From Bilabrum cf. latius (taxonomy: Eukaryota), in assembly GCA_965178125.1 (NCBI GenBank), contig OZ237760.1:186001-250000 (forward strand): a stretch of DNA of 64,000 nt, read 5' to 3'. Position 1 is the first letter of the stretch. Each line of letters begins with the position of its first letter. Shown here in pieces: positions 1-64,000 of this stretch. The notes under the pieces were generated by a model, which was not told where the DNA came from, made no database searches, and worked only from the letters and a program-made list of their open reading frames with translations. The position numbers and the translations under genes are program-made.

Positions 1-2335
1 GCGCCGTCTGCCTCGTGCTGAGCCCCGCCTCTGCGTCCCCCTTCCTGACACCAGTCAGCGCCACGGACGATGGCGCGGGTGCCGCATCGGTGTCCTGCGG
101 CGCGTCGGACGTCCCATGGTCCAGCGCCCCCGCACCGGCCTGCAGCACCGCAGCTAGTTGCATCCCAGCCGATTTGGCCAGGACAAGGCCGCGCGATTGT
201 GCCGCTGCTGCGCCCGCCACATCGCCCCCCTCGCGCAGCAGCTTGGAGCTGGCGGCCATTGCCAGCACAGCATCGGCGCCGGCACGCGCGGGCGGTTCCG
301 GTACCGCCGATGCTCTTAGCACCCGCGCCAGGCAGCGCGCTGCCGTCTGCCTGAGGTCCGGCTCGGTTCCCGTGGCTGCCTCTGCCACCGCCCCGAGGAG
401 CCTGGGGAACTTGCGGAGGGCCACTTGGAGGCACCCCGGGTCCTGAGCCATCAGGGAGCAGGCGGCGCCCACCAGCTGTGAGGTGTCCTCTGATGACATC
501 GAGGCGGATGAGGCGGCGAGGGAGGCCGTGGCTCGAAGCAGAACGGGGACGGCCACTGCTCGCCTGGATAGGGTCACCATATGGGCGGCCTGCGCTATAT
601 GCGAGTCGCCGCCTGCTGGCGACACTGACTCGCTGCCGGAGGCCCTGACGAGTGCTTCCTCCCCTGCTAGGTGCAGCAGCGACTGCACAACCGTGCAGTG
701 CACCTTAGAAAGCACCGCAGCGCACTGCACCCCGAGGAACCCGTCGGGATCGCCGAGCCCACCCGCCAGGCCGGGCGTGTCACCGTCTAACTGCCTCATC
801 TGCTCAACAGATACATGCAGCGCGCCCCGCACGGCGGTTCTCTGCCCTGCACCCAGCTGCCGCAGCATGGACCACTCGGGCAGTGGACCCTCTCCCTCCC
901 GATTAGCGGGCACAGTGCCGGTCACCGGCCCGAGCGCCATCCCGGCGGCACCCGCCACAGCCCTCAGGCACTTGAGTCCACCCTACCCCTACCCCCCCTC
1001 TTCTCCTTCTCCTTCTACCTTTCCAGTGCTCACTTCGCTCCCCTCCTCCGAGAACAGCACCCGCGCCCCCTCCACAGAGGAAGCGAGAGCGGGCAGGCAG
1101 CCCAGCGCGTTCATTGCCAGGAGCGGGTCACCAAGGGAGCTGTGGCAGAGGGTGAGGAGGGCCCCCGTGGCACCGCTGGCCCGCGCCAGGGAACAAGCCA
1201 GGGGGCACCCTGCCAGGAGGGTTGCGACCAAGTGCGCCCCTCGGACCTGCAGCGAGGACGGGTCATCACCGTCCCCGTCCTCCATCGGAGTGCTGCTGCC
1301 TTGCGCATCATTGCCGGCTGCGCCAGAGCCTGTGCCCGATGGGCCCGAGCCCGGTCCAAATGAGCCGCGAGTCGATATCCCGCAGGCTTGCATGATGGCA
1401 GCGAGAAGGCCACATGCTGCCTTGCTCGCCTTGCTGCCCGCTCGAGCACTTGCTCCGTGCACCAGGAGAGCGAGCGAGAGCGATTCGGCCAAGGCAGCCT
1501 CTACCAGATCCTACCCCGCGAGCGACCGACATAAAGAAGACTGCAGAACGGCAAAGACTGCCTGGAATTCCGATGCATGGGGCTTTGCAGGACCTGCTGC
1601 CAAATTTCCGGCGGGCGCGCTCGTGCTGTCGCTTCCACCCCACAGCGCAGCTGCAGCCGCAGCCGACGCGACGAGCCCAAACCCGGACTCTTTGGAACGC
1701 TGCGCCACGCAGACCTGACGGGCACGCCGAATGATCACGGCGGCTTGGGGCTTGCCGGAATTCGAATCGGCTGCACCGGCACACGAAGCAGCGTAGGCCT
1801 CTCGGTCGTCGCGCCTGCTGGGAGCAAGACACGGCAGGGGACATGTCGGCGGCGCAAGCAAGCGGATCAGTGCCCTCATTGAGGCCATTCTGACCTCGCG
1901 TTCTATGCTCGCGACACCCGATCTGACTGTGCTCGTTGCGAGCTCGGCTGCGTGGCTTGCGCTTGGATCGACTGCTCCTGCCGCTGAGGCAGCGCTATCG
2001 TGACTAACCGCACCGAGAACGCCCCCCACGCACACATCAATGGCACGCTACACAATCCTAGCGTGGGCGTCTGCAGTTTGAGACTTTGCGTGATCCTTGG
2101 CTGCGCGCCATCGCTTTCTGTCACGCACGGCTGATTCAAACGCCTCCAATAACGCCGCACCGCGCACTTTTTGCAACACAGCCGCCGTATCAGATAGAAT
2201 AGAAGTGGTCTTTTCTGGTATCACAGTACCGCGACCCTCACTGCCCCTTGAACTACTCCTCGATCGGAGGTAGGCTCGGCCAGCAAGGAAGTGGCAGACA
2301 TCCAGCACACCGGATTCGGACGCAGCGACGTCCAT
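1..2335 (-). CDS. Large Ala/Leu-rich helical-repeat (HEAT/ARM-like) protein, runs off the window edge; 4 in-frame TAGs
   Basis: ATG at 2335 (MDVAASESG). Track ORFs 2048-2500, 1511-2035 and 989-1492 share one frame, joined by TAGs at 2048, 1511, 989 and 983, and the frame appears open to position 1. The HEAT-like call rests on composition only. Confidence 0.6.
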
Positions 2336-2553
2336 TGTTGCGCTATCAAGCAAATCAAGATGTATCACAGGGCTGAGACCACTACGAGCGGTTCTGTGTG
2401 AGCGCCAGAAGTGCGAGGTAGCCTCGTCGCGATGTGACGACTGCCACGTCGCCAGCCGCATTCCTTGGGGAGGGCAGCGCCGCTGTGCGTGCGCACACAA
2501 GTTCAGGTTTTATGACACGCAACGCAATAATAGGAAGGGCGCAATCCACCGTG

Positions 2554-5500
2554 TCATGTCGCGTCTTCCTCCTCGATCGGTCTACCCTCGATCGAAGCCA
2601 CGAACTGGATGTGCCACGGCCGCCCGCTCTTGTCCAGCCTTGTGAGCCCGTCGCATTTGAGAGGCGCGTGGTACGTCTGCGAAGCCGTCCCCGCGTCATC
2701 CAGCGCAGTGATGAGCGGTCGCAGAGGCACCACGCAGTGTCCCTTGATGCCCCGCGTGATGGCGCACTTGACGAGCAAGTGCGCGTGGGCGAGCGCCGAT
2801 GCTCGCTTGCACGTGAACCGCAGCGTGCAGGCGGTCTGCCTGACCTTCTCGTCGAACGTGGCCCTCGCCGCAGTGGGCACCTGATCCCCCAGCTCGAAGG
2901 GTGCGGGGCACAGCACCTTCACGACGGAGGGGCTGCTCACCGCGCTGTCCCCGTGTGCCTCGATCCCCGTCAGCCGAAGCACCACGGTCATCCCCACGCT
3001 GGGGAGGGCACTGGCAGCGGACAGGCCCGCGCGCAGGTAGGACGGGATCGCGACCACCACTCCGCTCCTTGACTTTGACTTTGACTTGCCCCCGCCGGGT
3101 CTGCTGGGTGGCCCAGGCCTGCCACTCGTCCCCTCCGAGCCCGAACCAGACCCGGCCGGCTTGCGCGCCGACTGCCCCGCCAGCGGGTTGGACGTGGCCA
3201 TGACCCCCTCGTCCGCGAAGGCGGAAGGCGCAGTCGACGCAGACCCGGCTCCACCCGCCGCCGCACCCGCCGCTCCGCCAGCGTCGCTGCTAGGGACATC
3301 CAGCGGCAGCCTGACCAGCACGGGGCCCAGGGCCTCATCTCCCGCCGCTGTGCCATGCACCTACCCCGCCCCCGCACCGTCCTCGTCCTCATCCTCCTGG
3401 TCGGGCTCGAGTTCCTCGGTGGCCAGCACCCCAACGGGGGAGGGGGGGCACATGACCCGGAACACGCACCTCACTGGCGAGTGGTCCGACACGGTCAGCA
3501 CGTCGTTCACGGCGTCGTAGCTGGAGGCCCTGGCCAGCTCGCCTGCAGGAGCCTCCGCGGGCACCCCGCTGGAAGAGGCCTTGGCCAGAGAGGCGGTCGT
3601 GGCAGTGATGCCCCCCGCCACATCCCCGATGCTGCCTCTATGCGACGAGGAGGAAGAGGAAGAGGAGGAGCCCGCCCTACCATGCGAAGAAGATGATCCG
3701 CTGCCCCTGTGTCCCGCGCCTCCTCCCCCTCCCCCGCCTCGGTTCGCCATCGCGTCCGCCTCGAGCCCCTCCCTCGAGGCCCGTTCCGCCTCCCCCCTGC
3801 TCAACGGATACATGTTGCCCTTGAGGTGCGGCAGGGAGTGGTACACGAGTCGGTCGCACCACCCGGGCATCCTGTCGACGGTGAAGCCCCCCTTGTAAAA
3901 GACCTCCTTGAACAGGATGCGGTACACTCCCTCGGGCCAGGAAGAGTCCCTGTAGTCGGCTCGAGGGCGGCCCTCCAACTTCTTGTACGTGGGGAACAGC
4001 GCGGGGCCCATGGGGGGCTCCACGTACCCGGAGAACACGTCGGTCTGCGCGCGGTGCTTGCGGAGATCGTCGTGGTCCTGGAGCAGCTTCCCGTGGAGGG
4101 TCTTTGGGTTGGCGATCAGCGCCAGAGCCTCCTTGCCGGAGATCCCGCTGCACCTGTAGTTGAAGTCACCCATGAAGACCACGTGGTGGAAGCTCTCGTT
4201 CAGGTGGAAGAACTCGTTGCCGAGCCCCCCGCCGAGCTGCTTGCATACCTGCATGTACTGCTGCAGCCTGGCCGAGATCTTCTTGCTGGCCATGTGCACG
4301 CTGATGAACGCCATCGTGGCGCCATGCACGCGCAGGCTCACCCCGGCCCCGCCCTTGCTGCCCTCCGTCGCCCCAAAGCTGCAGCTGCACACGCGGTTGA
4401 TGCGGACGAAGGGAAGCATCCTGGCGGGCACAAACACCGCGATCCCAGTGTACTTGAGGGTCGTGAGGGAGCCGTCCCCGCGCCCAAGTACCCTGTCATT
4501 CCCCTCTGCGGTCTTATCCGTTACCTCCTTGTGGCTCTTGCGGCCACCCTTGCCCCCGCCCATGGACCCCCGGGGCGTGCCCCCGAGAGGACCCTCCTTG
4601 CCCTCCTCGCAGGGAACAAGCGGCATGCGGATCGTGCCCGTGGACTGCGCGAAAAAGTCCAGGACTGCATCGGACATGCCCTCCTGGATTCCCAGCACGT
4701 ACAGGTCATACCCCGGAGGGGCTAGCATCCGCAGCATCTTTGGGTGGATCGCGCCCTTGGCTGGCTTGCCCTTGCACGCGGCTTCTGCTGCCGGCGTGGG
4801 GGGCCCTCCGAAGGCCTCGGCCGAGCTGGGGATACCGGACCGATCGCTCGCGGCGCCGCCATGTTCCGCATCCTCGTGCGCGGCGCCCGTGTGAACGGGT
4901 TCCTCCGCCCCGACGTTCCACGTGCCGGCCCACACGGTGGCAGGGACCAGCGGCCCCTGCTGCAGAATGGCCCGCGCGTCCGCCGGGGAGGTCGCGCTGG
5001 CCACACGCTGGAAAGCAAGCTGGCAGAGTGCGGGCGAGACCACGATTCCCGTGCGGCTCACCATGGCCGCCGTCGTGGCACTTGCATTCAGGATCGATTC
5101 GCTTCCGGCCGCGCTCCCCTCCGCCAGCCCTCCCATGCCTCCAAAATCCCCCCCGCTCACGGAGCTCTCGGCGTCGCCTCCTGCGATCGGTGCCAGCATG
5201 GAGCGTCCCGCCGGACTGGCCGTGATTCCGCCACCGATCTGCACTATGGAGCGCCTGTGGCGCATGATACCGCTCGATCCCCTTAGTAGGCCGCCGGGGG
5301 ACCGGTCGCCGTGGTCGCCGCTGCCGCTGCTCAGCATTGCGCGGAGGCCAGAGAAGGACGCGGCCAAGGAGGTGAGCTGGTCATCCACCTGCATTCGTAG
5401 TTGCTAAACCATGCGGCGAGTCTCTATCTGATCTTTGCGCGCGGCAATTGCATTTCTTGCCAGGATTGCGAGGACGGTTGAGCTGTCCCCGCTCGACTCT

Positions 5501-5778
5501 GCAGCAGTCAGCGCAGCCGTGTCTGCCTCCAGCCTTGAAAGCAAGGCAGAATCGTCCAAACTAAAGTTGTCTGCACTGCCTACTGACTCCCTGCGCAGCA
5601 CGCTGTCCTGCTCGTCGATCGATTCGCCGTCTCCATGGGCTCCGGCAGATTCGCTCCGAATCGAGCGGTTGCTGTTTTGCGCTGATACTCGCAGCTCAGG
5701 GTCGCTCCCGGATCCACTTGGCAAACCAGGTGGAGGACGAGGCGTAAGTTTCACTTCCGACGCTTCTTCTTCCGCCAT
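2554..5778 (-). CDS. Inositol polyphosphate 5-phosphatase (EEP family) with N- and C-terminal extensions; 2 in-frame TAGs
   Basis: Motifs GTWNV, GIQE, FISVHMAS, VFMGDFNYR, PTYK, PGWCDRLVY and SDHSPV. ORFs 5404-5799, 3361-5394 and 2554-3360 are one frame separated only by TAG (5404, 3361); ends TGA at 2554. Confidence 0.9.
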
Positions 5779-5943
5779 GTCTTCTTGGTGTTGCCGCACA
5801 CACAGGGTGCAACTCCAAAATTGGGATTTGTTATCCTAAACTGCACGCTACCATATTCTTCCGCCAACTCGATAGACCGTAGGATTCGAAAGCATGAGAA
5901 ACAGCGCAGTTATCAAATCATCACTCATTGCATCCTTGGCGCG

Positions 5944-7497
5944 TCACAGCCGGCGCAGCAAGCTTCGCCCCACGGCTGCAGCCACGTGCGGAGGCGCCTT
6001 GAACACGCCAGAAGCAGCAAGCTGGTGCCTAGACCCAGCCGACCCAGACGGCGCGTCAGGGGGGGCAGCTTCAGCGGCCTCCCCAGCCCGCGCCGACGAT
6101 CTCCATCTCCCCCCACCCCTCCCGTCAGCGCTACCCCTAGCCCCAGCCCCAGACCCAGCTCCCTCCACCGGCGGGGCCCTGGCCAGGATTTGCGTGAAAG
6201 GGTGCTGAAACACCTTCTTAGCGAACGTTCGCTTCTCCTCGATGGCGGCAAGTTCCTCGGGCGTAGGCTCCGGATCCCCTGCCCTTCTCGCAAGCGGGAT
6301 TCGAGGCGGGATGGCGGGCTTGCCCCGGCCCCGCCTACCACCGCCCCCCTCCCTCCCCCTCCCCCTCTCCCAATCGCCTCCGTCCTCGCTATCACTGCCC
6401 CCTTCGCCCTCGTGCTCCGCCTCCGAATCGATCCCGACCGCCAGTTCGTCCATGCTGCTCCTCCTGCCCGCCCTGCCCCTGCCCCTGCCCCTCCCATCTC
6501 CGTGTGACGAGGCAACGCTGGCTGTTTCAGCGTCCGAATCAACATATGACGCATAGTCTGAGTCTTCCTCGCTTGATCGGGCGCGCGGTCGACGCCCACC
6601 TGCAAGGGAGGCGCCCAGCAGCCCGCGGCCCATCTCCGCAGGGGTCTTGCTGAGGCGAGCGTGCTCGGCCTTGCCTTCGACGCCGCCTGGCGGGGGGCGC
6701 GGAGGGGTGATAATGATGGGATCCTCGTCCAACGATGGCTCGCGGTCATCGGGCGGGCCCCCTCCAGCAAATGACATTACCTAAAGCGTCGTGTGCCCCA
6801 TGAGCAACGCATCTCCCAAGCGCATGTAGCTGCCACTGTTCAGCAGCGTTGCACACGGTTTCTGTTCGCCATGCCTAACCAACCTGCGACCGATTGGCTC
6901 GAAAAAATACATATGTACTATCTAGTAATTGCAGTATGGCCATTGAAACGCAAGGGATCGAAGCAATGCAAGAATATGAAATGGCAGTAAGCGGGCTGGC
7001 AAGACTCTAGCCGCTCCGACAATCGTATCCTCCGTAAAGCTCTACATCCGATCGAAGGTGTGACCAATACAATACAGGCTCAAACTGCAGCTAAAGCTTC
7101 GGGAGTTCGATGCGAGAGCAACCGGATCCAACCGACACTGCAGCTCATTCTGCAGGCGTCAATTCAACACCAGAGAGATCCCTACTGCTTACCATGTTCC
7201 GTTTCTAGACGAGTCCATAAAGGCAATCTATCTCTCTATTTCACCCTCCCGTATCGAAAAAGTACCATGCACGCGGGAGATAGCTGCATCACCCAGCCTT
7301 CCGCGACCACACTGCCGACCACGCCCTATTGACAAAGGAAACCCTTCCGTCAGCAAGAAATTGCAACCCGCTGACGGGCCTGTCGTTGTTGTGACGATAC
7401 ATGAAAGCTGTTGCGACATGTACGCACACAACACTGCTTGTGTGAGGCTGCCGTGGAGCTGGTTCACTGCAGATGCGGCAGGTTCCGGTGCCGCCAT
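5944..7497 (-). CDS. FHA-domain protein with low-complexity C-terminus; intron 6884-7192; 2 in-frame TAGs
   Basis: Spliced product reads SIGRGRQC..DAAISRVHGTF..ER*IAFMDSSRNGTW|LVRHG..YMRLGDALLMGHTTL*VMSF, matching the FHA GR, SRxH, NGT and GD motifs. Donor GTAAGC at 7192 and acceptor CGCAG at 6884 keep frame. TAGs at 7228 and 6781; stop TGA. Confidence 0.8.
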
Positions 7498-8900: not shown

Positions 8901-9078
8901 TCGCTCTGTGTCGGACAGAGTATCCGCAGCGGACTGTCCCGGACGGAGTCTGTCCGCTTCTAAAACTACACGCTACCTGTGAGTAAAGTATGAATTAGCT
9001 GGCCAGGCCGCCAGGTCTTCACCCAAAATCCAAAGCCTGCAGAGTGCTCATATCGTTCATTGCCTGGTTCATAGAACC

Positions 9079-12000
9079 ATGCAGTGGACAAACATGCGGA
9101 TTATGTGCGTATATTTGATCATAGCCGGCAGCGTGGCCGGATCAAGACAGCTTCGGGTCGAAGAGGATGTCCTGAATGGCTGGCACCCGTATTTCGACAG
9201 GGGCCACTAGCACTTCGGTTGGGAGCAACACATTGTGGATGACATTAACGGAGATGGTATTCCGGAGCACGTGTACGGGAACGGCTTCACCGCCAACATT
9301 GTGATCGCGTCGCTCAATTCGCGCCTGAAGATTCGGGCCATCTCAATCATCAGCCACCCCACGTACAAGAGAAACTGGGCACACCCTAGCAGCGCCGGAG
9401 ATATTGATAAGGATGGCACACCAGATATGTTTGCATCTACAGGTACCTATGGCAAGCTGTTTGTCATGTTCATGAACCCTGACCTGACTGTGAGAGCATG
9501 GAAGACGAGCTCCGTCACCGGAGGCTCCTACTGCGGGCACGCTGTCTCGAGTGCGGGTGATGTTGACGGCAACGGCGTGAACGACGCCGTTGTGTATTGC
9601 ACAAACTAGAGGCCTTGCATAGCCCGTATGAGGTCGGACGGTAGCATGATCGGCTATCAGTGCTTCCGGCCCGCTAACCTCGGGCTCACCGGCACGTCAT
9701 CGTAGTTTGGTGCACGCACGGAAGCTCTGGGATAGCTTTCGGGAGATGGGCGGGCGTGGATCGCTGTGGGGGATGCGGACAAGGTTCATGTTATGAAAGT
9801 GTTGGCCACTGGAGCCGTGGATAAGCCCAGCATCGTGAGCCTGAGCATGCCCAGCGGCTACACTGGAGACGGGAATTTCCGGTTTGCTGTCACCATTGGG
9901 GACATCAACGGGGACTATAGAAACGATCTCATGGCGGGAGAATACGTGTTTCTGCTTAATGCAGATGGCAGTGCAAATCGGACGCTCTCGGTGCAGGCAA
10001 GCGGACCACTGCAGGGCCGGCAGAACACCCTCCCGACGGACCCTGAGGACACTATGTGGACGGATGTGGACGGAAACGGGATTGGAGACGTGTTCCACAC
10101 CAGGGGTGTGTACCTATTAGGCTACGGGATGGGTGGCTACAACGATTTGCACGGCATCCGGTACCAGAGCGTGGATCTCATCAGTGACGAGTACCAGTGG
10201 GTCACGGAGACCCAGGCGCATGAGGTGGACGGCAACGTATACAGCACTGCCAAGGCATCGATCACAAACCGGACGATCACACTGAATCACACCAAGTGCG
10301 CAGAAGCAAGGGCGCACATATCTCTGGGCAAGCTGGACGGTAACGTATCTTTCAGCTTCGACTACAGTGTGGAAAGAACAGGAAGCACCTCGGAGCCAGT
10401 GGTGGTAGCCATCGTGGCTGGAGACTCGCTGCAGTCTGCGGACGTGCTGGCAAACTACACAATTCCCCGAGACGCAAAGGCAGATGAAGAAGTGACGGCC
10501 ACATTGCGGGCCTACAGCATGAAAGCAACGAAGGAGGCCTGGCTAATTGCGAGGACGTGGGCGGACAACAGCGATTACAGCTGCCACCCGTCCTATCGGA
10601 TCTACAACACCAAGCCGACTTAGTCTTGCGGCGGACCATCGGCCTGTACGTAGAGCGCCCGCAGGACCAACATCGTGACGATTGATTTCGCGAGATGGAG
10701 CCTGAAGAGGCGATACTTGGTGCCATCTGCCAGCCCAACGCCCTCAGCGTCTCCATCAGTGAGTCCCAGCGTGACGAGCTCATCATCAATCACCCCGAGT
10801 CCCAGCACCTCGCCCACGCCGAGCATCAGCAGCAGTCCCAGCACCTCGCCCACGCCGAGCATTACGAGCAGTTCCAGCACCTCGCCCACGCCGAGCATCA
10901 GCAGCAGTCCCAGCACCTCGCCCACGCCGAGCATTACGAGCAGTTCCAGCACCTCGCCCACGCCGAGCATCAGCAGCAGCCCCAGCACCTCGCCCACGCC
11001 GAGCATCAGCAGCAGCCCCAGCACCTCGCCTACGCCGAGCATTACGAGCAGTTCCAGCACCTCGCCCACGCCGAGCACTACCAACAGTCCCAGCAGCTCC
11101 ATCACAGCCTCGCCGAGCAGCAGTCCGAGTCCCAGCAGCTCCATCACAGCCTCGCCGAGCAGCAGTCCGTCTATCACAGCCTCGCCGAGCAGCAGTCCGT
11201 CTATCACAGCCTCGCCGAGCAGCAGTCCGTCTATCACAGCCTCGCCGAGCAGCAGTCCGAGTCCCAGCAGCTCGCCGTCACCGAGCAGCACTCCAGCATT
11301 GCCACCTTCCCCAATGCATAGCTCATGCCGGACGACCACTTGTGGTGAGGGTCTATGCTACGATATGCCTGGATTTTACCCCCCTTTCGTCTGCCTATGC
11401 AATGCCGGATGGTCCAAGAGCCCCGCTGGCATGTGCACACAGAGACGCCAGGACAGGCCATGCGATGCCATCGATTGCGCTTACGGTCGTTGCATCGAGA
11501 ACCCACGAGCTGGGTCCGGGTACTATTGCGAGTGCGAGGATGGCTGGGCAAAGAGCAGCCTGTCGAGCAGCTGCATTGTCCGCAGGAACCCGTGCGATCC
11601 GTCCCCTTGCATGAATGGCGGGCGGTGCATCTAGCCTGTGCAGGACAGCAGCATGCCTAGCTGCACGTGCCTGGACGGCTTCTCTGGCGACCTATGTCAG
11701 GTGGTTGAGCTGGGGCCGTGCGAGGGCGAGCCGTGCGGACCGGGCGTGTGCTTTGGAGATCGAGCCAACCCGAATGGCTACAAGTGCAGCTGTGAGCCGG
11801 GGTACGGGCCCAGCGATTCTGGGACTTGCGTCCCCTAGCCGCCTGATGACGGCACCACCACCCTGGAACCCACGTGCAGGGACGGCGAGATGAATGGCCT
11901 GGAGTCGGACGTGGACTGCGGCTCAGTTGATCTGGTGCAGCAGGGGAGGTGCCCTTTGTGCTCTGAGGGTCAGAAATGCGACTCCGAATCTAACTGTGCC

Positions 12001-49940: not shown

Positions 49941-52020
49941 GTTGGATCTAATTTGCTGTTTTCCTTTGCAGCGCTCTATTGTCATTGTGTTCTTCTTCTA
50001 TACTTGAATGAAGATGAAGATGATATACATCTATAATTTATTCTTGAATTAACATCTTGAGTAGTTCTAGAGTGAACTGAATCCAGCCTCCCTAGTATGA
50101 CTGGGAACCTATTATGCTAAATAAGGTCCCACAGGCGCTGGCCCCAGCTCGGCAGACCCAAGTCGCCCACCCCACGCCAACTCGTACCGAGCAGCCGCCG
50201 CATAGAACACGTCAGCTGCATCCCTCGCAGATCCAGCGCCCCACAGCGCACTCATCACACCGTATGGGCCCATCCACGCCGCCCGTTGCGCGTGCCACCA
50301 CTCCACCGCCAACCGACCGCAGCCCCCCGTCGGAGGCCCCAGCAAAGGGTCTCCCTCCAGCTGAGACAGTGAGCTCAGCGGCGGGCGCAGGCTGCACCGA
50401 CGGGCAGGCACCGACAGATCGCCCAATCGCACGCCTGCACCGTTCACACGGACACCACCACCACCCAATGACGTCCCTGCCAGCACCCGCGCCCCAGCCC
50501 CCTGCACCGCCTGCTCCCCCACCAGCCCCGCCCACAGGCTGAACGTCGACGCCCCTTCCACCAGCGAGTCGCACAGCGCCAGCCCCTAAAGGTCCAGCAG
50601 AGCGTCCATCCCGATCGTGTCCAGGGCATGCACCGACCACGATAGCAAAGATGCGAACTTTGGCTCGGAAGCACGTGCAAAGCCAGGATCTATCGACGCA
50701 AGCACAAGCCGCACCGCCCCTGCTTGCTGCATGTGCTCCAGCACGTCCACAGCAACGCCCGGCCGAGACGACAGAGCAAGCACCACCAGACGCAGATCCA
50801 GCTCCGGCGAGGCCTCGGCAGTGCCTAGTGCTTCACTCGCTTCCACAGACCCTGTCCATCGAGGCATCACCCTGGGCCCACTCGATCGCAACCCCACATC
50901 CATGCCAGTCACCGCCAACACCGCCCGACGGAATGCACCAGGATCCGCGTCTGCAGCCGCGATGGCCGTGGCCTCCACCGTGAACCGCACAGGGTGCTCC
51001 CACCGGAATGCCACCGCATACGACTCGAACTTACGGTGGTGCACGCACACCAGCTTTGGCCCACCCGCCTCGGGGATGCCCGCCCGCAATAATGGGGGCA
51101 GGGCCTGGGCAGCAGCCCGTCTGGCACGGTGCAGCGAGGACAGCGAGCCTGCCGCAGTCTCGCCCTCCCCCACATCCGCCACGCTCCCGCCCGCGCTCAG
51201 CTCCCGAGCTAGCTCATGCCCAGACCCGCATGTCGTCTACTGCCCAGCCGCGCTGTGGTCCGACTCCCACCGCCCCTGCATGTGTCTCGCCATCTACAGC
51301 CCCAGCGCAGCGCCCGTCCTGCCGTCTTGCGATCGTGTTTGCCCCCCCAGAGCCAACTCGATCTGACGCCACCGCCCCTCGCCTGCAGCTCGCTCGAAGC
51401 TTGCCACGTCCGCGGCCGTGTCGCCATTCCGAGTGATGGGCTTCCACTCCCTGCAGTACAGCTGCATCATGGGAGTCAGCCGAAGCACGCCCCCAGGGCA
51501 CGACGACCCGCCATCCGGATCCAGCGAGCCACCGGTGACCAGGGCCGGGCACATCATCGCCACCAGCTGGCAGAACGACGGACGATGGCACCTCATGATG
51601 TCACCGCCATGCGATGCACCCACTTCAGCCTCCCTGACCCGATCCTGCAGCCGCGCCCACCCCGCCGTGTCGCCCCGCCCTGGCCACGACAGCAGCAGCC
51701 GCAGCGCCGCCGCTACTCCAACGGGCGGCGCCACGGCTCGACACGTGTCCCGGTGGCCCGCAGGGTGGGCAAACACGACCGGCAGGGCCTCGGCGTGCCC
51801 GTACGACATCACCGACCACTCCACAGCACCGGGAGATCCATCCGCACCACCACCCGCTGCGGTCGCTGCCTGGTGCGTGCGTGCGCTGGGCGAATCAGTG
51901 CCGCCGGTACGGCCCTCGCCGGCGGCCTGTATGAGAGCGCCGAGATTGGTGTCGGTGCCAGGGAACAAGCTGGTCTGGACCAGGTGGGGCACGCCGCGGG
52001 CAGGGGAGCCGGGCATGACC
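48030..52020. repeat. Long inverted repeat: arms about 48030-49937 and 50115-52020 with a ~175-bp AT-rich spacer
   Basis: The arms are near-identical reverse complements; for example, the 149-aa translations of 49491-49940 and 50112-50561 differ at one residue. Small indels are present. Confidence 0.95.
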
Positions 52021-52775
52021 AGGACATCCGTTGGCGATTGGGCGCCGCTGGCAGATCGCAGCAGGTTTACGCTCGCCTCGGGCCCTGGGGCCGCCAGACC
52101 CTGATACATGTCCTTTTTGGTGGTTCCTGCTAGCTGTGACAAGCGCCATGGGGTAAAACCTAGCCGGTGTCCTGGAGTTGTAGCTGTCAGTGGCGAGCCA
52201 ATCATTGGGCAGAAAATAATCAGCCCGCGATTGGGCCACTTATCGTCAATTGTTGCAGCCCTTAGCGGCATGTATTGCGATTGATTCTTGATTACTTCAG
52301 GAACGCTCAGTGGCGCTACCAGTGCCTATGATACTGCACTCATAAACCCCTGAGATCTCCAAGCGTCTGCGATTGGCCAAACTGTATTCGGCGGGGTTAG
52401 CGAAGCTGTCATCACATCTTCTGTCAACAGCGGATCTGGAGGTCGAATTGCTCCAGAGTATGGGCATGAAAGCCGAATTAGCAGCTCAGGTGGAGACTTG
52501 GACGTGTTTACTGAGCGTTGGTTGCAAGCACTGTGTAGCAGCCCCCATAGGCTCCTTTGCGCAGAAAGTTGAAACAGCATGTTGCCCAGTCGCCCTGATA
52601 AATGAACATGGACAGGTCTGCCGCTATGTAAAACTCTACTTCGCACTGGGGCTCCATCCATCAATGCAGTCCATCCGATCGAGTACGGATGAATGAGTTC
52701 TAGTGCGTTGCCGCGACCAGCATTTGCTGCTTGCCTGGTTAGCAACACAAGCAAGAATACGTCAATCCATCTCAT
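50112..52775 (-). CDS. GT11-like glycosyltransferase, copy B; 4 in-frame TAGs
   Basis: MRWIDVFLLVLL..GRLGNMLFQLSAQRSLW, with the same downstream motifs as copy A. TAGs at 52326, 51294, 51237 and 50586; stop TAA. Confidence 0.75.
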
Positions 52776-53221
52776 CTATAATTGTACGCCTAGTGTGCTC
52801 ATCAGGCGATGAAGCGACGAGCACATCCGAGACCGGAAGTATCGGCAGAACCATATTCAGTGGGCGCAGATGGGCGCCCTGCATCCATCTATTTGGGCTG
52901 CTGCGACGAGGCATGCTGCCTACGAACCCTAAATATGAGGCGGCGAGCTCTCCTCGCCGTTGCCGCAGTCCTCGCGCAGTTCCTCCAGAGCCGGTCCATT
53001 GAAAAACCACAACCCCCGTGCCCATTGCAAGTTGCGGCCCAATGGCAGCTCATCGCACCAACAGGATGGGAGATCAACCAGTTATCTTAGCAGCGATCTG
53101 CACAATCTAGCGCGCACGCACACCATTGATAAGTGACCACAGACTCCCTGATTGCATGGCGCCAGCTCCAGCTGCCGTTGGAGCCAGGCCATGTGATATG
53201 AATGCGTGAGCGTGAGCGATT

Positions 53222-53798: not shown

Positions 53799-53816
53799 GA
53801 GAGAGAGAGAGAGAGA
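53799..53816. repeat. (GA)n microsatellite in the divergent intergenic spacer
   Basis: gagagagagagagagaga. Confidence 0.9.
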
Positions 53817-53896
53817 AAATAGAGTTTTCGCACGCATGTGCCGCCGGCGTATTTCCGGATTCCGTTTTTTCTCACCTAGCCCGCACCTTTGCCGTC

Positions 53897-56800
53897 ATGG
53901 AGGATGAAGACTTCGAGCTGTAGTTACTTCATTACCAACGCGGCTATCCGCGCGCCTCGTTGCTGCTTTCGGCGTACGTTCTGTCGGTTTTGACCCACGC
54001 CGCGTACTCGGGGCCAGCTGCATACTTGCCGCTAGACACAGAAGACCACATGTCTTTCTTGGAAGTTGGGATTGTAATCGGAACACTGCCCGTTGTAATC
54101 ATGATATCTGAGATGTTTCGACTGTAGCCGCTGAGGGGCTACCCTCGTGCAGCCGTTGTATTCGGCGGATTCTTGGCAGCAGCATCCACGACCTCGTTTG
54201 CCGTCATTTCAGACCCAAACCTATACATGGGTGGATATTCAGTTCTCGTTGCGATAGGGCTCAGGGTTCTGCAGGGCATGGGGGCATCCATGTGTCTCAG
54301 CGGTATCACCGAAGCCCTCAGTATCTTCCTGCCAGCCGATCTGCGAGCCGCAGTGCCAATCATGGGAGGCTGCTCGGCGCTTGGGTTATTGCTAGGTCCT
54401 GTATGCTCCGGGTACTTATACCACGATTAGTTCAAGGCGTGGGCTGCCTGCGGCGTCCTGGGGGGCCTTTTCCTGCTCCCTGCCCTCGCCATCCTGCTGA
54501 TTCTGCCGGCCGAATCGTGCGGCTGCGCGGCCTGCTTCCGTCTGCTGGGCAGGGTCTGCTGCCTGGGTTGCAGCTGCGTCGGAAGGTGTAGAAAGGCTTG
54601 CGTGCGAGCCTGGGGGTACGAATACGATCGTCCCGAGGGCAGCAAAAGCACCACCGGGCATGCGGCGAGCGGTGCTCCGGAGATGAGGAGCGCCAGGGGA
54701 GCCGCCGGTAAAGCGGTCGGGCGGCCAGAGCGCGTGTACCGGCGATTGCGAGTCGACGGCGAGAAGCGACTCCCGTCTCGTGGTGATGCCATTTCATAGG
54801 GGAACAATGATTCAGGGAGCAGCGATCCAGGGCACCCCGACCGGATCAGCGCGCCTGCGCTGGCAAGACTAGACACTCCCACGAGACCGCGCAGTGCGAT
54901 GCACCCTGCGGAGGCAAAGCGGGATGACGAGCGAATGAGCCGCAGCGGGTCCTTCGCGTCTGTGGCTTCCATCACCAGCGACTTGTTCCTTGGAGGCATG
55001 GGAGGCGGGTCCAGCGACGTGGAGGACTTAGAGCGAGGGCATGCCGATCCGGATCTGGTGACGACGCCGGTTCTTTCGGGCGGAAACAACACACCGGGGG
55101 AGATGGGCTCCATCTAGACGATGGATAAAGTAAGCCACGGTAACCTCCTTGCACACGGTTTATCTAGTGTTTCTTCGGTCCAGTCCTCGGTGGCACCGCC
55201 ACGCTTGCCACTGCCACACAGCGGGAGAGCGATGGGAGACGGGCACGAGCGCTAGTCCTCTGCCAGCGACTCACAAGGGCAGGAACAGGACGGTGACAAC
55301 GAGGACCATGACGATGATGAGGATGATGACATTGAGGATGAAGATGAAGATGAGCTGGGGCGTGGGGGGCGGCGGGCAATGCGCGGGTGGGGCAGGGCCG
55401 TAGTGGGGGTGGGCACGTGGGCCAGGCCGCAGGACTCTTCGGGAGAAGAAGAGCACGACAGGAGGAGAAGGGCGAGATCCAGAGCTGGGTTCGGGACAGT
55501 GGCCACTGGGAGGGGTGCCAGAGGGACAGCAGGAAGAGGAAGAAGGGGAGGTGATGGTGGAGGACGGCAGGGCAGGGCGGGGTACTTGATGGGGTCGGGC
55601 CCCCAGCGCCAGTACGGCCTGTTGGGGGATGGTGGGGGCACGAGCGGAGGGAGTGAAGGGCTAGACGGCGGTGCTGCTGCGCATCGAACCTTCGAAGAAG
55701 GCATCTGCCCTGGGAGAGGTTTGGGATACAGCAGGATCGACAGCGGGAGGTCGACCGACAGCGACTTTGCGGGCTCGGGAGCAGCACACGGCATGCACGC
55801 GGGTCCGGAACGGGCAACGCTGACCCTCCCAGAGGAGCTTGAGGGAACAGTGGCTACTGCCTCTCTAGCATTTGTTCCCTCAGCGGGAGGGGGTGCTTCC
55901 CGGACCTTCGTGTCTGTCTTCGCGGTGGTGCGTCAGCCCGTGGCGGGAGCATTCTTGGCATCTTTGGTGGCTGCCTTCAGCAGCATTGGTTTCCTGCTGC
56001 CTAGCTTCGGGTACCACCTCGTGTCGTATGGGATCGACACGCCGCAGGCGGCAGGTCTGTGCATTGGGATGACCACGGTCATATTCGCGCTAGTGGCGCT
56101 GCTTGCAGCGGTCTACTTTGTCAAGCCGGAATTTGCGCTCCCTGCGACTGGCTGCGGGCTGGCAATCCTATCTGCGGGCCTGATACTGCTTGGCCCCGCC
56201 CTGCCTGCCATTGGGATCAATCTCGCCTCTCAGCTGTCTGCTCTCCTGTGCCTGGGAACTGGGGCGGCGCTCGCTGCTGTCCCAGCAGCCCCTGCCATGC
56301 TCGAATCGGCTGCACTGCGTCGTCTGGGCTCCGGGCGGTCGCAGGCGGTCGCGACCCTTTGTTCCCTGGGTGCGCTGCTGGGCGAGGCGGCTGGGCCCAT
56401 GGCTGCGGGCGTGCTGACCCAGGTGTTCGGCTTCAGGTTCGCCTGCCTCTGCGCCTCGATCGTGGTGTTCTGCCTGCTGACAGTGCTTCTGATCGCGGCG
56501 GCAGCGGCCTCGCAGGGCACCCAAGGAAGGGATACTGCCGGTAACAGGGGAGGTGCTGACCGGCTGTTGGATCTTGGACCTGAGGGAGCGGCCGCTGTGG
56601 GAGTGGGCATGGATGCGGTGTCTGGTGGGAGCGAAGCTGCGTTTGGGGTGCCCGGCGGTCTCGTTGCCGGCTCTGGACTAGATGAGGACATTCCTGCTGG
56701 TGGGATTCCTTTCGTAGCAGCGAGCGGGCAGGGGCAGGGACATGTGCGCCGAGGCGGCAGCCGGAGCGATATCCTGCCGGTAGGCAGGGCGCAATCGGAG

Positions 56801-56905
56801 TTTCTCCGGGGTGCTCGTGCAAATTCGCGGGGAGGAGTAGGTACTTCGGGGCGACTTGTGAGTGGATAGCAATCCAGCGGGGCAGGTGACGTGGCGGTGC
56901 TTTGA
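53897..56905 (+). CDS. Major facilitator superfamily transporter with a very long central loop; 7 in-frame TAGs
   Basis: Two hydrophobic bundles; motifs GLRVLQGMGAS, GLLLGPVCSGYL and LGEAAGPMAAGVL. TAGs at 53921, 54125, 54428, 54797, 55115, 55253 and 56867; TGA at 56903. Confidence 0.85.
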
Positions 56906-57217
56906 TCCACTGACTAATGCTGACCGGTCAGCGTCAGCTACTGGATTTGGTTGCGACGGGCGCTTGTAGACTTAGGCTTATTCTGGGTAGACTCATTAAC
57001 TTGCAGCACCCCCTTTACATCTGCACCAAGAAAAGAGGCGACTCGTTTTCATGCTCTGTGCAAACGCGCAGGGTCGTGCCGCAAACAAAAAAGAAGCATT
57101 CACCTGGTATCCAACTCTCTAGCCGGGCCGCGCGCCGCATCCCACCGAAGCCACGCTGTCGCAATGCTAGATACCCCATTTGAGGTGTGTCATTCCCTCA
57201 TTCAAATCTCCACTCAC

Positions 57218-60136
57218 TTAGGGTCCGTCTGCGTCGCTCCGGGGCGGGTACGCGGACTACTCAAAGGCCTTTGCGGACTCTGTCGTGTACACAATCCTCT
57301 CGCTCTCCTTCTTGAGCCCTTCGCTCACCCACTGCTCCTCCTTCTGGTTCATGTAGTCCCTAAGCTCCTTGTACTTGCCCCTGCCCGCGGGCGGAGGGAG
57401 TGCGGCGAGCAGGCCGGTCGCGCTGATGGCATCCCCGAGGCCCACCGTGCTCTTCGGGTGCTTGCACACGAGCACTGGTACGTAGGCGAAGGTCAGCACG
57501 GGCTCCTTCAGCTCGTTCAGTGGCACTGTGGGGAGGGATGCGTCGCGTCCCAGGGCGTCCACCTGCAGCTCGGGCTCTTCTTCCTGTACTCCCTGGGGAA
57601 TTCCCTCCCCCTCTTGCTGCTCCCGCGTGGCCTCCTCTTCCGCCACGATCACCTCGTGCTCCTCCACGGCCCTCCTGAGGCGGATCTTCTGCCTCGGTGA
57701 GAGCTTGACGGTTCCGCGGGCCATCCTGTAGGCGAGGCGTTGCGGGCGCATGGGCCACTCCCACTGCACACCGGGCACCTCTGGGGAAATGCTGAGGCTG
57801 TTCCAGTGCCTGCGGTTCGGGATGGCCATCCCGTCAGGTCCCGTGCGGTGGATCCCCTGGCTGCCAAGTCCCGCTCTTCCGTCGACCTTGGGCCCTTCGT
57901 CCTCGTCGTCCTGCAGCTCTGGCGCATCGTCCGAGCCCACCGTGCCTCGCTTGCCCGCCAGTCCGGACTGTAGCTCGAATTCTGCGTCTTCTGCTGCAAG
58001 CGCCAGTACCTCTGGTTCCGGGACGCCCACGAAGCTCATGTCGATGCCCCGGGGGACCCTGCGGAGAGCATGCCTCGCTAGGATGAAGAGGTCACCGTCG
58101 GGCAGGTCACTGATGGGCGTGCTGTCGTTCAGGGCACCGTCAGACACGAGCTGGCTCCGCAGAGAATCAAGCGCGTCCAGGCCCACCTTACCCAGCGAGC
58201 CCCTACGGGCCATCAGCAGCTCCTTCTGAACCTGCTTGCGGCCGTCCGTTGCGAACTGAAACCTCGCCGCGGGGTCGCCGGCATCCACCCGCATGGGTGC
58301 AAGCAGCTTAAGGTCGTCCTCGCCCAGCTCCTCCGCTTTGACTCCACCGCATGCCTTGGTCGTGGCGCGCAGCGAGCCTGAAAACAGGGCGTTCGTGGCG
58401 TCCCTCCATTCCACACGACCTTCGCGGCGTACCTCCATGTGGAACGCGAGCGTGTGCAGGTGGATCCGGTTGATCCGGAAGTTCCGCTGCGCGGAGATGA
58501 CGTGGCGCAGTGCCGCAGCGCAAGCCTCGGGACTTCCCGGCTGCGGCCGCACCAGCATGTCGCGCGAGGGGACTCCGATGAGCGGGTCGTATGCCCCCCC
58601 GGTGGCCTCGAATAGATCGGCGAGCTCCTGCTCGTTCATGCCCACCGAGTCCGCGGCGGGGAGCGCCTCATGCGCGAGAACCTTCATGAACTCATTGGTC
58701 CCCACGGAAGCCAGCTCGATGTGCTTGGCGGCCTCCTCAAAGACCTAGTAGAAGGGGTCCCTCACCTGGATGACGGCCTTGCGCTGCTCCTCAGGGGTAG
58801 ACAGCGCCTCGTACATGTGTAGTCCAGCCAGGATGGCAGCGTCAGCGTCGTACCCGACACCACCGGCATCGATGGCTCGGTCGGCGTACGTTGGGTCGGC
58901 CATGCGATCGTCCGAGTTGAGGATGAAACGGTTGGCCCTAGGCGGCGCCAACCCGGCGAACGTCTCCCCGGCGGAGTACTCTAGGATCAGGTGCACCGTG
59001 TCGGGTCCCATGGCATCCAAGGGGAAATCGTTGGCTTCTTGCAGGCCGGCCGGGATTTCCTTCCCATCCGCCTCGATCATTTCCCTCTGCTTCGCACGAA
59101 TGCCGTTTTCACCCTTCGCGAATGCCTCCACCATGTCTTCAAGCCCGCTCTCGGTTCCATTGGCAAGGAGGCCTTGGTAGGGGTCGCTGGACAGCAGCAG
59201 CCGACGGGTCTCTCTTCCCATGTAGCCCCCGGCGAGCACCCGCGCACCGAACTTGACCGCTTGAACCGCCATGAGCGCGGCGTTTCCTCCCAGCCGATCC
59301 TCAAGCACAGGCCGGTACCGCACCTGCTCGGATTCCTGTTGCCTACCAGCGGCGGAGGGAGGGGAGCCAGTGGAGTCGTGCGCGACCTCCGTGGTGTTCT
59401 TCGCGCCCACGAGTGGTTGGCGATGGGATGCGAGCACTGCAGGGACGTACAGGTCGTTGTACTCGGTTGAGTTGGTCACGGACCTCTCGCCCGCCGCGCC
59501 GCTTTGGAAGAAGAACAAAAAGGACTCGATCGCCTGCTTGACCGAGCCGATCTCAGGGTGGTCAAAACCTTGAGGTCGGGCACCAAACGCCTCGATTAGA
59601 TCTCTATCAGATGCCTAGGCAAGGCCCTTAGCGTCTCTTGCAAGCTCGACTCCGCCCGGTGTGAGAGTGTCTTCCTACAGCTCGCCTTGAGCAGCTGCTC
59701 GAACCGCCTGCTTCAGGAAACCTCGCATATATGGTACACCGCGTACTACCCTATCGATGCAAAAATTGTGTGAAACATACAAACGCTGCGAAGTCTCGGG
59801 GAGCCTGAAATGCTGGGCCTTCTGCTCTCGAAGCATGCCTGACAGAGGGCCCGGTGCTCCGTGTGGATACACATCTGGCGCATTCTACGCAGCTTCCCGG
59901 GCCAGCTTTTCGTTAAATGCCTGGGTAGGGAGTCCGTCTTCTCCAACTACTGGCAACGTATCTCCTGGTGTAGGCCCCGGCACGTCCAGCTCGCTAGGAC
60001 TTGTGTCGACCTTTCCAGCACCACCGATACCAGCCTCACTGCTCGCCTAGCCTTCGCCCGTCTCCTTGGCTGCATAGCATGTAATAGCAAGGATTGTCGC
60101 AACTAGTGCGACAAGTCGTGGTTGAGTGTCCCTCAT
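57218..60136 (-). CDS. ADPGK: ADP-dependent glucokinase (ADP-PFK/GK family) with N-terminal signal sequence; 6 in-frame TAGs
   Basis: Motifs GGNAALMA, HLILEY, PRANRFI, HIELAS, DSVGMNEQEL, RIHLHTLAFH and PVLVCKHPKSTVGLGDAISATGL. TAGs at 60047, 59885, 59675, 59615, 58745 and 57257; TAA at 57218. Confidence 0.9.
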
Positions 60137-60355
60137 CGAATAATGTGGTCACGTGGCAACACAAGTTCGCAACAAACTGATGGTATGGAGTCAGACGACG
60201 AACACAAGGCAGCCACGATGCACAAGTACAAGTATACGTATCTGCTCGTACAAGCAACACCAAATGCGGCGCCTCTAAAAGCTGTTGCCCTTGCCGACCC
60301 AATCCAGCAAATCTGATCTGGCAACCGCACGCTACCTCGATGCCACAGTGTGGCT

Positions 60356-61528: not shown

Positions 61529-61675
61529 GTGTGGCTCTCGTGCCCAGGCCGCCAGTCTGGCGATCACAGCGACACCTCATTCCTGGGTGCTTGTCCAACG
61601 ATCGGACAGTCCCACAGACGGCCCAACACAATCAATATTCGACCAGAGTCTCATACAATTGCCACCGAACCTGGC

Positions 61676-64000
61676 TCACATGCGAACGGAAGCTGCTCGT
61701 TCGGCTGTGGCAGTCCCAGAATCATCACTCTTCGCATTGGATGAAGCTGCGCCCACTGCTCCCTGCCTAGACGAGCTAAACTCCCCGTGTGCAGCCCATC
61801 CGATCGGCGCTCCATACTCTAACGCAACATTCGGCGGGCCTCGGCTGCGACGCTTGGAGGCTACGCTGCTGCTGCCCGTTGCTGTCACCACGGACTACGA
61901 CGACGACGCTACCCCGCGCCCAGACCGCGAAGACGAAGACCGTCTGCGGCTAGATTTCACCATGTGACGAGTGGGCACTGCGATCCCCTCGGGCCCGCTG
62001 CTCCCACGCCCACGCCCAGCGCCCATCCCCGTCATACCCACCATCCCCATCCCCACCCCCACCCCCCTTCCTATGCCCATGCCCCCTAGCCCCATCCCCA
62101 TCCCCATCCCCATCCCCATCCCCATCCCCATCCCCATCCCCATCCCCCTTCCCCTTCCCATGCCCATCCCCATCCCCGGGTGTGCACCCAAGCCCGATCC
62201 CGTGCCTACGCCATACATCCCAGAGCCACCTATTCCCTGCCACTGGCGAGCCCCCGCGCCGGCATAGCCCGCTGTCCTTGCCTGCGATGGCGCGCTGCTG
62301 GCGTGGCTCGCCTTGCTACTCTTGCTGCTGGCCCCGCCGACACTGGCATTTGCCGCCCCAGGTGGGGCCGTGTGGGCCTGTGATGGCATACCGCTGCAGT
62401 TCCCCACGCTCTGGTTCTCGTCGCGGCTCCTTGCGCCAGCATCCTGCAAGTCTTTGCTTTGGCTGCTGCCGTCACCGCTGTGCGACTGGCTGCTACCGCT
62501 ATGACCGGCCTCCGCAGCACCAGCCTGCATGCCTTGCTACAGCAGCTCCTGCTGCTTCCTCATGTTGTGCTGCAGTGCAGTGATTGGGATGCCGACTCCC
62601 AGGCTGGACCTCTCCTGCGCCAGCCGAATCATAGCCTGCTGCTGGGCGACCCGAGCCAGCTGCCACTGAGCCCACCCTGGCGTGCCGGGCTGGGGAACAC
62701 GACCACCATGCCCCTCCATGGGGGGCTAAATTAAGCCAGCCCGCCCCACCCCTGCCCCTGCTCCCACTCCTGCAGCGGGGTACCCTGCTTCCCCGGCTCG
62801 CTGCATCCAGTTGCTCTACATCTGCCTGGCCATGCGTACCCGGTGCTGCAGCTCAGGACTCATCTGATGCAGGTGCATGCTTTCCTGCGGGGCCAGGGCC
62901 CGACTGTCCTGCAAGTGCTTCTGTGTCCCGGGGTACCCGTCCTCCATTAGAGCCTGACTGTTCCGCCCCTGCCCGTTCGCCTGCGCGCCGTACAACCCAT
63001 CGAAGCTGTAGGACCTGGCCCGGTCGCCGTCTGGCACCTGGCTCGCCATGCTGCCCGTGATCGAAGGCTCGCGCTCCCGCGAGCGCACGCTGCTTCCGCC
63101 ACCTCGCGGGGCGCTCAAGTCGTCTGTGTTCCCTGGCTGGCCCGCGTCCCCCAGGGCCTGGAGCTGCGCCTCGTGCTGCGGGCCCTGTCGTTGCAGGTTG
63201 CCCACGGATCCAGCCCCCGCAGACAGTCCGGAGGCGGATGCAGTGCCGAGAGGGGACGCCGTCATTTCCCGTCTAGGAACAGCAAACGCGCCCGGACCCG
63301 GTCCAGCACCTCCGTCCAGCGCTCCGCCCGAAAGGTACTTGCTGACCGAGTTGGCACCATCCTCATCGTTGTCCTGGTTGCTGGGTGCCCCTGACTCTTG
63401 CGGCGTGTCGTCCAGTCCTGCCCTCTTGCCCGTCCTGCCGGCTGGAAGAGGTGCGGTATCAAAGAGTCGGCTGGTGGAAGTGGAAGTGGTCGCATTCGGC
63501 TGGGAAGATGCAGCCGAAGTGGAGACGCCAGCGCCTGATGCTAGAGCGGAAGCATGGCCCTGGCCCTGACCCTAGCTCTGTACGGCAGTGCCATGCACTG
63601 GGCCTTGACCCGCCGCTCTATACTTGGCATCAGCTAGCCCGACAGGCACCTCATCCTCGTCTGACGAATCGCTGCCTGAGTTGGAAGCACCGCCCGATGC
63701 ATCGCCACCGCTAGCACCACCTTGACTCGATTCGCGGAGCCCCCTCTCCCTCTCCCTCTCTATTCGCTCGAGCTTGCGCTTCTTTCGCCTAGCAGCTCTC
63801 GCCTTGATGGCAGCGCGGTACCTATCTTCTTCACCTGCCGTGCTGCGGGACTGCCTGGATGGGGCTAGGGGTATGGCACTGCCTTGCTTCGATTCATCCA
63901 TATGGGTGGAGCTTGGTGGCACGCCACTTGATGCACCGCTGGTCTGCTCGATGGTGCCAGCTGCGATGCCGTGGCGATCAGCACCGGGTCGGGTGCTTCT
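61676..64000 (-). CDS. C-terminal part of a large low-complexity (Gly/Ser/Gln/Met-rich) protein with an NLS-like RRKKRK; 5 in-frame TAGs
   Basis: ORFs 63572-63922, 62816-63265, 62537-62719, 61895-62530 and 61676-61891 are one frame joined by TAGs at 63572, 62816, 62726, 62537 and 61895; stop TGA at 61676. Confidence 0.65.
62090..62177 (-). repeat. (GGGATG)n hexamer repeat encoding poly-(Gly-Met)
   Basis: Tandem ccccat units on the + strand. Confidence 0.9.

Follow-up and report, generated by a model that had tools for sequence, protein, structure and literature searches.

In-frame UAG most likely read as glutamine, with UAA and UGA as terminators, in nuclear DNA of a stramenopile related to Cafeteria

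The stretch analysed here, referred to as the window, comprises 64,000 nucleotides (nt) at positions 186,001 to 250,000 of contig OZ237760.1 (assembly GCA_965178125.1); it is gene-dense, has few introns and a GC content of about 61%, and most of its genes carry TAG triplets within their reading frames. We propose that the window very probably belongs to the nuclear genome of a heterotrophic stramenopile whose sister group is the Cafeteria (bicosoecid) clade, and that in this organism UAG encodes glutamine (Gln) and UAA and UGA are the only terminators, a layout that is that of NCBI table 15. The features on which the argument rests are given first and the remaining genes after them, with positions counted from the first nucleotide of the window.

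14200-26088, minus strand: giant REJ/FG-GAP/mucin-like membrane protein, 3962 codons, 17 TAG, ending at TGA
29627-35386, minus strand: ferric-reductase-like membrane protein, 15 TAG
44577-44778, minus strand: NDC80 exon 1 region (MSSARRTTLGP...), which recovers an N-terminus as in homologs
44428-44576, minus strand: NDC80 intron, 149 nt, GT..AG, absent from the spliced contigs of the public runs X6 and X7 and present in run X4
42352-44427, minus strand: NDC80 exon 2, with TAG 44248-44250 in the HEC domain and three more in the C-terminal tail, ending at TGA
47130-49940, plus strand: paralog A of an orphan family, 8 TAG, ending at TGA
50112-52856, minus strand: paralog B of the same family, 5 TAG, ending at TAA
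28185-29510, plus strand: glutaminyl cyclase gene, 4 TAG, the last of them (29487-29489) seven codons before TGA
37273-38064, plus strand: RPB5 gene with an intron at 37483-37573 (91 nt, GT..AG), no TAG, ending at TGA
44950-47024, plus strand: RBR-type (RING/IBR) E3 ligase in three exons, with an intron at 45422-45581 and a skip at 46105-46486
57218-60148, minus strand: ADP-dependent glucokinase (ADPGK), 6 TAG, ending at TAA
53801-56905, plus strand: MFS transporter, 7 TAG, ending at TGA
8983-13125, plus strand: FG-GAP/EGF/mucin-like protein, 12 TAG, ending at TAA
35654-37171, minus strand: 4'-phosphopantetheinyl transferase, 1 TAG (maybe in the leader), ending at TAA

Pfam domains lie in the frames of the window, namely Ndc80_HEC (E-value 5e-38), ADP_PFK_GK (3.8e-61), Glu_cyclase_2 (4.6e-73), FA_hydroxylase (1e-18), Exo_endo_phos2 of the inositol-phosphatase type (5.1e-21), ACPS (2.8e-13), MFS_1 (3.3e-10), REJ (2.2e-19) and Rpb5_C (9e-34), together with matches to FG-GAP, EGF and IBR. 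Among the domains named in the first-pass annotation, which had been made from the letters alone, those of NDC80, ADPGK and the hydroxylase were recovered in this way, the NOX-type transmembrane domain (Ferric_reduct) matched only weakly (E-value 0.0097), and no FHA domain was found in any frame scanned with Pfam. Since spliceosomal introns occur together with genes for a kinetochore protein and an RNA polymerase II subunit, the window is nuclear eukaryotic DNA.

The sense reading of TAG was assessed by comparing the six-frame, stop-to-stop open reading frames (ORFs) of the window under the standard code and with TAG, TAA or TGA each taken as sense. Under the standard code the longest ORF has 754 amino acids (aa) and none reaches 1000 aa, whereas with TAG as sense there are seven ORFs of at least 1000 aa (3962, 1919, 1380, 1326, 1129, 1046 and 1034 aa). 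The longest ORF is still of 754 aa with TAA as sense and of 780 aa with TGA as sense; since ORFs of 1000 aa or more were seen under the TAG-sense reading alone, the effect is TAG-specific, and it far exceeds chance. The 18 frames bounded by TAA or TGA comprise 18,405 codons with 102 in-frame TAG, in-frame TAA and TGA being zero by construction, and the off-frames of the same DNA hold 310 TAG, 105 TAA and 645 TGA, the in-frame TAG density being two-thirds of that off-frame. TAA and TGA together take up about 2% of off-frame codon positions, and a frame of 11,889 nt without either of them, as in the giant membrane protein, can therefore only be coding. According to a sliding codon-usage score, 5 of the 102 TAG lie in 5' leaders that score near zero (three in 7158-6800 of the gene at 5944-7158 and two in 5943-5780 of an INPP5-like gene), which leaves about 97 coding TAG and agrees well with the roughly 96 of an earlier hand count. 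UAG as a sense codon, the central claim of the first-pass annotation, is thus borne out by both the ORF comparison and the codon counts; the statement that 17 of about 20 genes are interrupted by TAG holds for most genes with the numbers changed to 16-17 of 18 gene models (RPB5 has none), and the frame described as 11.6 kb long does carry its 17 TAG and no other stop, at the greater length given above.

Of the 17 gene ends that can be seen in the window, 13 are TGA and four are TAA, and none is TAG; the earlier count of 19 ends was right as to the two triplets and the four TAA, and too high in the total and in TGA, for which 15 had been given. The paralogs A and B stop at the same residue (...GPYLA), A with TGA and B with TAA, and the codon score past the four TAA ends falls to between -0.34 and 0.04, as compared with 0.12-0.32 within the same genes. 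By these comparisons within the DNA itself, TAA and TGA are shown to terminate and to be used interchangeably, as had been claimed. A code in which UAA and UAG both encode Gln (of the table 6 type), UAA appearing stop-like merely through its rarity at high GC, has in its favour that UAA and UAG nearly always change meaning together, coupled reassignment being by far the commoner kind according to PMC5304391, and that TAA is the rarest stop triplet over both strands of the window (380 against 967 TAG). We nevertheless consider it very improbable, because four genes end at TAA with low-scoring sequence beyond, the TAA of paralog B stands exactly at the position of the TGA of paralog A, and reading TAA as sense gives no longer ORFs. 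Moreover, TAA as a Gln codon would predict about 30 in-frame TAA beside the 102 TAG, given the CAA:CAG ratio of 0.31 (164:524) in the 18 frames, and no gene needs any.

The gene ends also bear on the possibility that UAG is context-dependent, with a sense meaning within genes and a stop meaning near mRNA 3' ends, as in Condylostoma and Blastocrithidia. In its favour, TAG occurs within about 15 codons of the presumed stop in the cyclase, ADPGK, MFS and NDC80 genes, and the ends were set by the first TAA or TGA. All frames, however, reach TAA or TGA soon after the last TAG; the residues beyond that TAG are conserved in relatives of the cyclase (D-x-PFCE) and of NDC80 (GPPAGFEG), and TAG near gene ends is probably read through; the paralog pair ends at TGA and TAA, and 0 of the 17 ends needs UAG. 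A dual meaning is thus unlikely. In the same context, the minus-strand TGA at 5944-5946 splits two adjacent frames that are in phase, 5944-7158 (404 codons) and 2554-5943 (1129 codons). The codon score is zero or below across about 60 codons around this TGA, which points most likely to separate genes some 180 nt apart and not to read-through of TGA.

Most TAG lie in poorly conserved regions and are scarce at conserved domain positions; with so few at deeply conserved columns, it is the comparison with close homologs that decides which residue UAG encodes. Among eight TAG positions in conserved context, compared with paralogs and close relatives, seven pair with a Gln codon or residue and one with glutamate (Glu). 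The inverted pair of paralogs A and B belongs to a family without any Pfam match, and self-BLAST of 16 window proteins limited paralogous segments to this pair. A search with the N-terminal part of paralog B by HMMER against the full library (1.8 billion representatives) gave a single match, P0163 (E-value 1.7e-07). Within the conserved motif GN-x-LF-TAG-L-x-x-TAG-RS-x-WG, CAA of paralog B stands opposite two TAG of paralog A (47463-47465 and 47475-47477), and P0163, the only other homolog of the family, has Q at both positions. CAA is two changes away from TAG, and such pairings are expected only if both codons are synonymous with CAG. In addition, paralog A has CAG opposite TAG 51237-51239 of paralog B. 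The last 580 codons or so of the two genes are 94-99% identical in DNA and the first 330 or so 41-52%, which suggests that the 3' part was recently duplicated or underwent gene conversion; the more identical part contains one TAG facing CAG and two TAG in common. The N-terminal motif GRLGN-x-LFQ of this family may resemble the GNxxFQ motif of GT11/GT23-type fucosyltransferases.

Homologs from other sequences point in the same direction. P0161, which is 81% identical to the ferric-reductase-like protein, reads ELQPSG where the window has EL-TAG-PSG (TAG 34265-34267). This standard-code fragment stops exactly at a CAG of the window, and so does P0162 when no gap is placed among its last three residues; a search for shorter standard-code fragments of this gene gave two proteins only. 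A metagenome contig of 3.5 kb (L001), a single locus out of 425 pattern matches in a metagenome scan, encodes an NDC80 87% identical to that of the window in protein and 78% in DNA, and at three positions one of the two sequences has CAG where the other has TAG:

NDC80, ENDFQ-x-RISQ: window CAG 44296-44298, L001 TAG; flanks 15/16
NDC80, GKDF-x-NIV: window TAG 44248-44250, L001 CAG; flanks 16/16
RBR ligase, SQNG-x-x-ETFL: window CAG 45403-45405, L001 TAG; flanks 11/16

From these comparisons UAG most likely encodes Gln, in agreement with the first-pass annotation. The rival assignment to Glu (known from some ciliates and, for UAR, from Blastocrithidia), or an ambiguous Gln/Glu decoding, draws on two TAG positions that face Glu in close relatives and on GAG, which differs from TAG by a single base and with 704 occurrences outnumbers the other codons of its type in the window. 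Gln at seven of the eight conserved-context positions, the two CAA pairings just described and the common exchange of Q and E, by which one or two Glu pairings are expected even when UAG is Gln, make this assignment improbable.

Evidence from other sequencing efforts addresses whether the TAG are real and whether they persist in mRNA. Part or all of 53801-60148 is carried by 12 public runs from seven studies, and over 28000-47100 we compared run X4 (study P1, possibly the source of the window itself), X5 (P2), and X6 and X7 (P3), the evidence being assembled contigs and not raw reads. X4 and X5 show zero differences from the window in every listed piece, and the 27 in-frame TAG of this region lie under zero-difference pieces in 27 cases for X4, 18 for X5, 20 for X6 and 3 for X7. 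The runs X6 and X7 have very uneven depth and carry joints that are not in X4 or X5, namely 37482>37574 (91 nt removed, GT..AG), 44427>44577 (149 nt, GT..AG on the minus strand) and 45421>45582 (160 nt, GT..AG). Joining the exons makes RPB5 complete, gives NDC80 an N-terminus like that of its homologs and brings the RBR ligase into one frame; since the joints restore three gene models, at least these contigs are RNA-derived. There are thus a few spliceosomal introns that the first-pass annotation had not seen. A further joint, 46104>46487, occurs in one X6 contig only and skips 382 nt (46105-46486) with the ends GA..CA and not GT..AG; the skip brings the RING2 motif of the ligase into frame, and the skipped segment may be a non-canonical intron.

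A spliced X6 contig (44013-44427 joined to 44577-44778) has no difference from the window and retains the NDC80 TAG 44248-44250 unchanged. UAG is present in mature mRNA and is neither edited nor spliced out. Assembly error and removal of UAG by editing or splicing had been named beforehand as outcomes that would overturn the sense reading; the former is contradicted by the X4 and X5 contigs and the latter by this spliced contig. The more general view that the TAG are spurious or do not reach the ribosome, be it through errors of assembly or sequencing, pseudogenes, RNA editing or splicing, found no support, the eight differences of one X7 contig missing every TAG, and it faces, besides the spliced contig, the agreement of contigs from the other two studies with the window, the 97-102 TAG against zero TAA or TGA in frames with coding signal, which cannot be decay, and a related species with in-frame TAG at other positions. 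Its probability is practically negligible. The X7 differences mentioned are clustered at 29939-29990, near the end of a low-depth contig, and are probably an assembly-end error or an allele.

The lineage was approached through NDC80, for which the best named match is that of Cafeteria roenbergensis (51% over the best local alignment), the next being those of oomycetes at 35-38% and of the labyrinthulomycete Hondaea at 38%. In a maximum-likelihood tree of 34 sequences (IQ-TREE, LG+G4), from which three long-branch rows (P0157-P0159) and five short or partial rows (P0150-P0152, P0155 and P0160) were excluded, the window groups with L001 and P0121, which are nearly the same sequence, with support of 100/100. 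This clade is sister to Cafeteria roenbergensis plus five sequences (99/98), and both clades fall within a wider stramenopile assemblage, among oomycete and labyrinthulomycete sequences. The tree places the window beside the Cafeteria clade, a position far from Iotanema, the rhizarian exLh, Scotinosphaera and the ciliates listed in PMC11687900, which supports the earlier suggestion of a non-ciliate organism and an independent origin. A search with the glutaminyl cyclase gave mostly bacterial matches near 50% identity and was useless for placement. L001 represents a second species, about 13% divergent in NDC80 protein; since it has in-frame TAG of its own (one in NDC80 and three in the RBR ligase), the code is common to at least two species of the clade. 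The first 150 nt of L001 contain a direct repeat of about 75 nt, seen as a duplicated peptide in the translation downstream of RBR exon 2.

Taken together, we give a probability of about 0.9 to the reading proposed at the outset, in which UAG is Gln and UAA and UGA are the only terminators in nuclear DNA of a stramenopile sister to the Cafeteria clade. Several points weigh against it. Few TAG fall at Pfam-covered positions. In the 41-52% identical part of paralogs A and B, TAG pairs with TTG (Leu, twice), GCA (Ala) and AAA (Lys); two L001 TAG in the poorly aligned N-terminus of the RBR ligase face TCG (Ser) and ACT (Thr); in the gappy NDC80 tail, TAG pairs with V, D and T. A second TAG of the ferric-reductase-like gene, where the alignment is divergent, faces E in P0161, and the cyclase-tail TAG 29487-29489, whose context is conserved, pairs with Glu, the protein P0001 (88% identical to the cyclase) reading LETED where the window has LET-TAG-D. 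Among 15 distant homologs, the column of the HEC-domain TAG is variable (K, L, C, Q, R, N, A, E and H), with K in six and Q in two, and a TAG of ADPGK stands at a non-conserved column of an alignment with PDB sequences and is uninformative on the residue. The X7 spliced contig that covers the NDC80 TAG has one unlocated difference, with the TAG 3-5 nt from the contig end; X6 is labelled 'RNA? (probably DNA)', only its spliced contigs being certainly RNA-derived, and as no run is on record as RNA, the RNA origin in X6 and X7 is argued from those contigs. Furthermore, a gene end is by definition the first TAA or TGA, so that an occasional terminating UAG could go unseen; the placement comes from a single gene, NDC80; the sample is one 64-kb window and one relative of 3.5 kb; and the window contains neither the tRNA-Gln(CUA) gene nor the eRF1 gene on which decoding would depend.

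The code table itself is already known, and what the window adds is a well-supported, phylogenetically independent case of the rare UAG-only kind in a lineage for which no report was found. In the fornicate Iotanema spirale (Metamonada), UAG is Gln and UAA and UGA are stops (Pánek et al. 2017, PMC5304391); this non-ciliate has the same table, with in-frame UAG only, Gln as the residue and UAA and UGA as sole terminators. Its supergroup is unrelated, the data on it come from a transcriptome, and UAA is its predominant stop, whereas the window is stramenopile genomic DNA of about 61% GC in which TGA predominates (13 of 17 ends). Among ciliates, Protocruzia tuzeti and two phyllopharyngean lineages are described as reading UAG, but not UAA, as Gln (McGowan et al. 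2024, PMC11687900), as in the window; they belong, however, to a group of frequent code changes, and the organism of the window is non-ciliate by the NDC80 tree. A non-ciliate nuclear genome with UAG and UAA uncoupled is also found in the rhizarian exLh, where UAG is Leu, and in the green alga Scotinosphaera, where it is Ser (PMC5304391 and PMC11687900), but with another amino acid than here; in our comparisons Leu pairs with TAG twice and Ser once, all of them poorly aligned. The nearest named relative, the bicosoecid Cafeteria roenbergensis, has a GC-rich, compact genome with few introns, and the part of its description that deals with codes mentions a non-standard one for the mitochondrion only (10.1101/751586). 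Its NDC80 is predicted full-length under the standard code, and its GC content is about 70%, against 61% in the window. TAG-recoded bacteriophages (code 15) are also reported to read TAG as Gln (PMC9523058); as viruses of bacteria they depend on a suppressor tRNA within the host cell, whereas the window is nuclear and eukaryotic.

A full-text literature search, with subscription journals and supplements outside its scope, returned no report of nuclear stop-codon reassignment in stramenopiles, bicosoecids, Bigyra or Opalozoa. The passages on codes in PMC12480563, PMC13768787 and PMC11412368 concern organelles or other taxa, and in a 2024 review of stramenopiles genetic codes appear only in a mitochondrial reference. 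Since the runs date mostly from 2025 and stem from several studies, the code may be under description, or already described, elsewhere. We regard it as somewhat more probable than not, with clearly less assurance than the code itself, that this is the first nuclear stop reassignment in stramenopiles, an independent UAG-only origin after the split from the Cafeteria clade, present in at least two species, in a GC-rich genome with TGA as the main stop. Lineages in which UAA and UAG are uncoupled are natural experiments on how one release factor reads UAA and UGA yet ignores UAG, and on whether a codon must become rare before it is reassigned. A stramenopile case adds a eukaryotic supergroup to their list, and with a standard-code relative, Cafeteria, adjacent to it, the change can be bracketed on the tree. 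The organism may be obtainable for study, since its DNA occurs in runs of several studies, two with spliced contigs; if the proposed code is true and the organism can be grown, it could show how eRF1 tells UAG from UAA. There is also a practical side, as standard-code gene callers fragment the proteins of this organism, whose database relatives start or stop at such codons, with the result that metagenomic gene catalogues misrepresent a group of grazers that is common in the sea.

By analogy with other stop-to-Gln cases, we hypothesize that UAG would be decoded by at least one tRNA-Gln with the anticodon CUA, one base changed from CUG, and that eRF1 would no longer recognise G efficiently in the third position after UA while still reading UAA and UGA. 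The 64-kb window contains no tRNA gene and no match to an Rfam family. Work by Hanyu and co-workers of 1986 is said to treat the biology of such stop-to-Gln changes. The eRF1 motifs involved in stop-codon reassignment are summarised in PMC5304391, which lists GTS, TASNIKS and YxCxxxF of the N-domain together with positions 55, 69 and 70 of the human numbering. The source of most new UAG codons may be CAG, changed by a C-to-T transition where the site is tolerant. UAG makes up about 13% of the Gln-type codons (102 of 790), mainly at poorly conserved sites and with none in RPB5, which fits a recent accumulation of TAG from CAG. Apart from the repeat bin 38192-38828, depth in the runs with spliced contigs is greatest over the RPB5 exon bins (37555-38191), about 141 in X6 as compared with 1-72 for the other listed gene pieces, and the lack of TAG in this gene is a hint that the reassigned codon is avoided where expression is high or the gene is conserved.

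Some minor features of the window concern its repeats. Both FG-GAP proteins have long Ser/Pro/Thr-rich mucin-like repeats (SPTPSxxSSPS...), at 10600-11400 on the plus strand and about 24000-24500 on the minus strand, which separate the propeller from the EGF or REJ parts of the proteins (8983-13125 and 14200-26088), and the two look like giant surface adhesins. Self-BLAST with a low-complexity filter found no alignable paralogy between them. At 38438-38497, a short GC-rich stretch of low complexity encodes a Gly/Gln-rich run at the 3' end of the gene at 38357-42337; in X4 to X7 it has very high depth (bin depth up to 3777) and many loose contig ends, being a simple repeat of genome-wide occurrence at which assemblies break.

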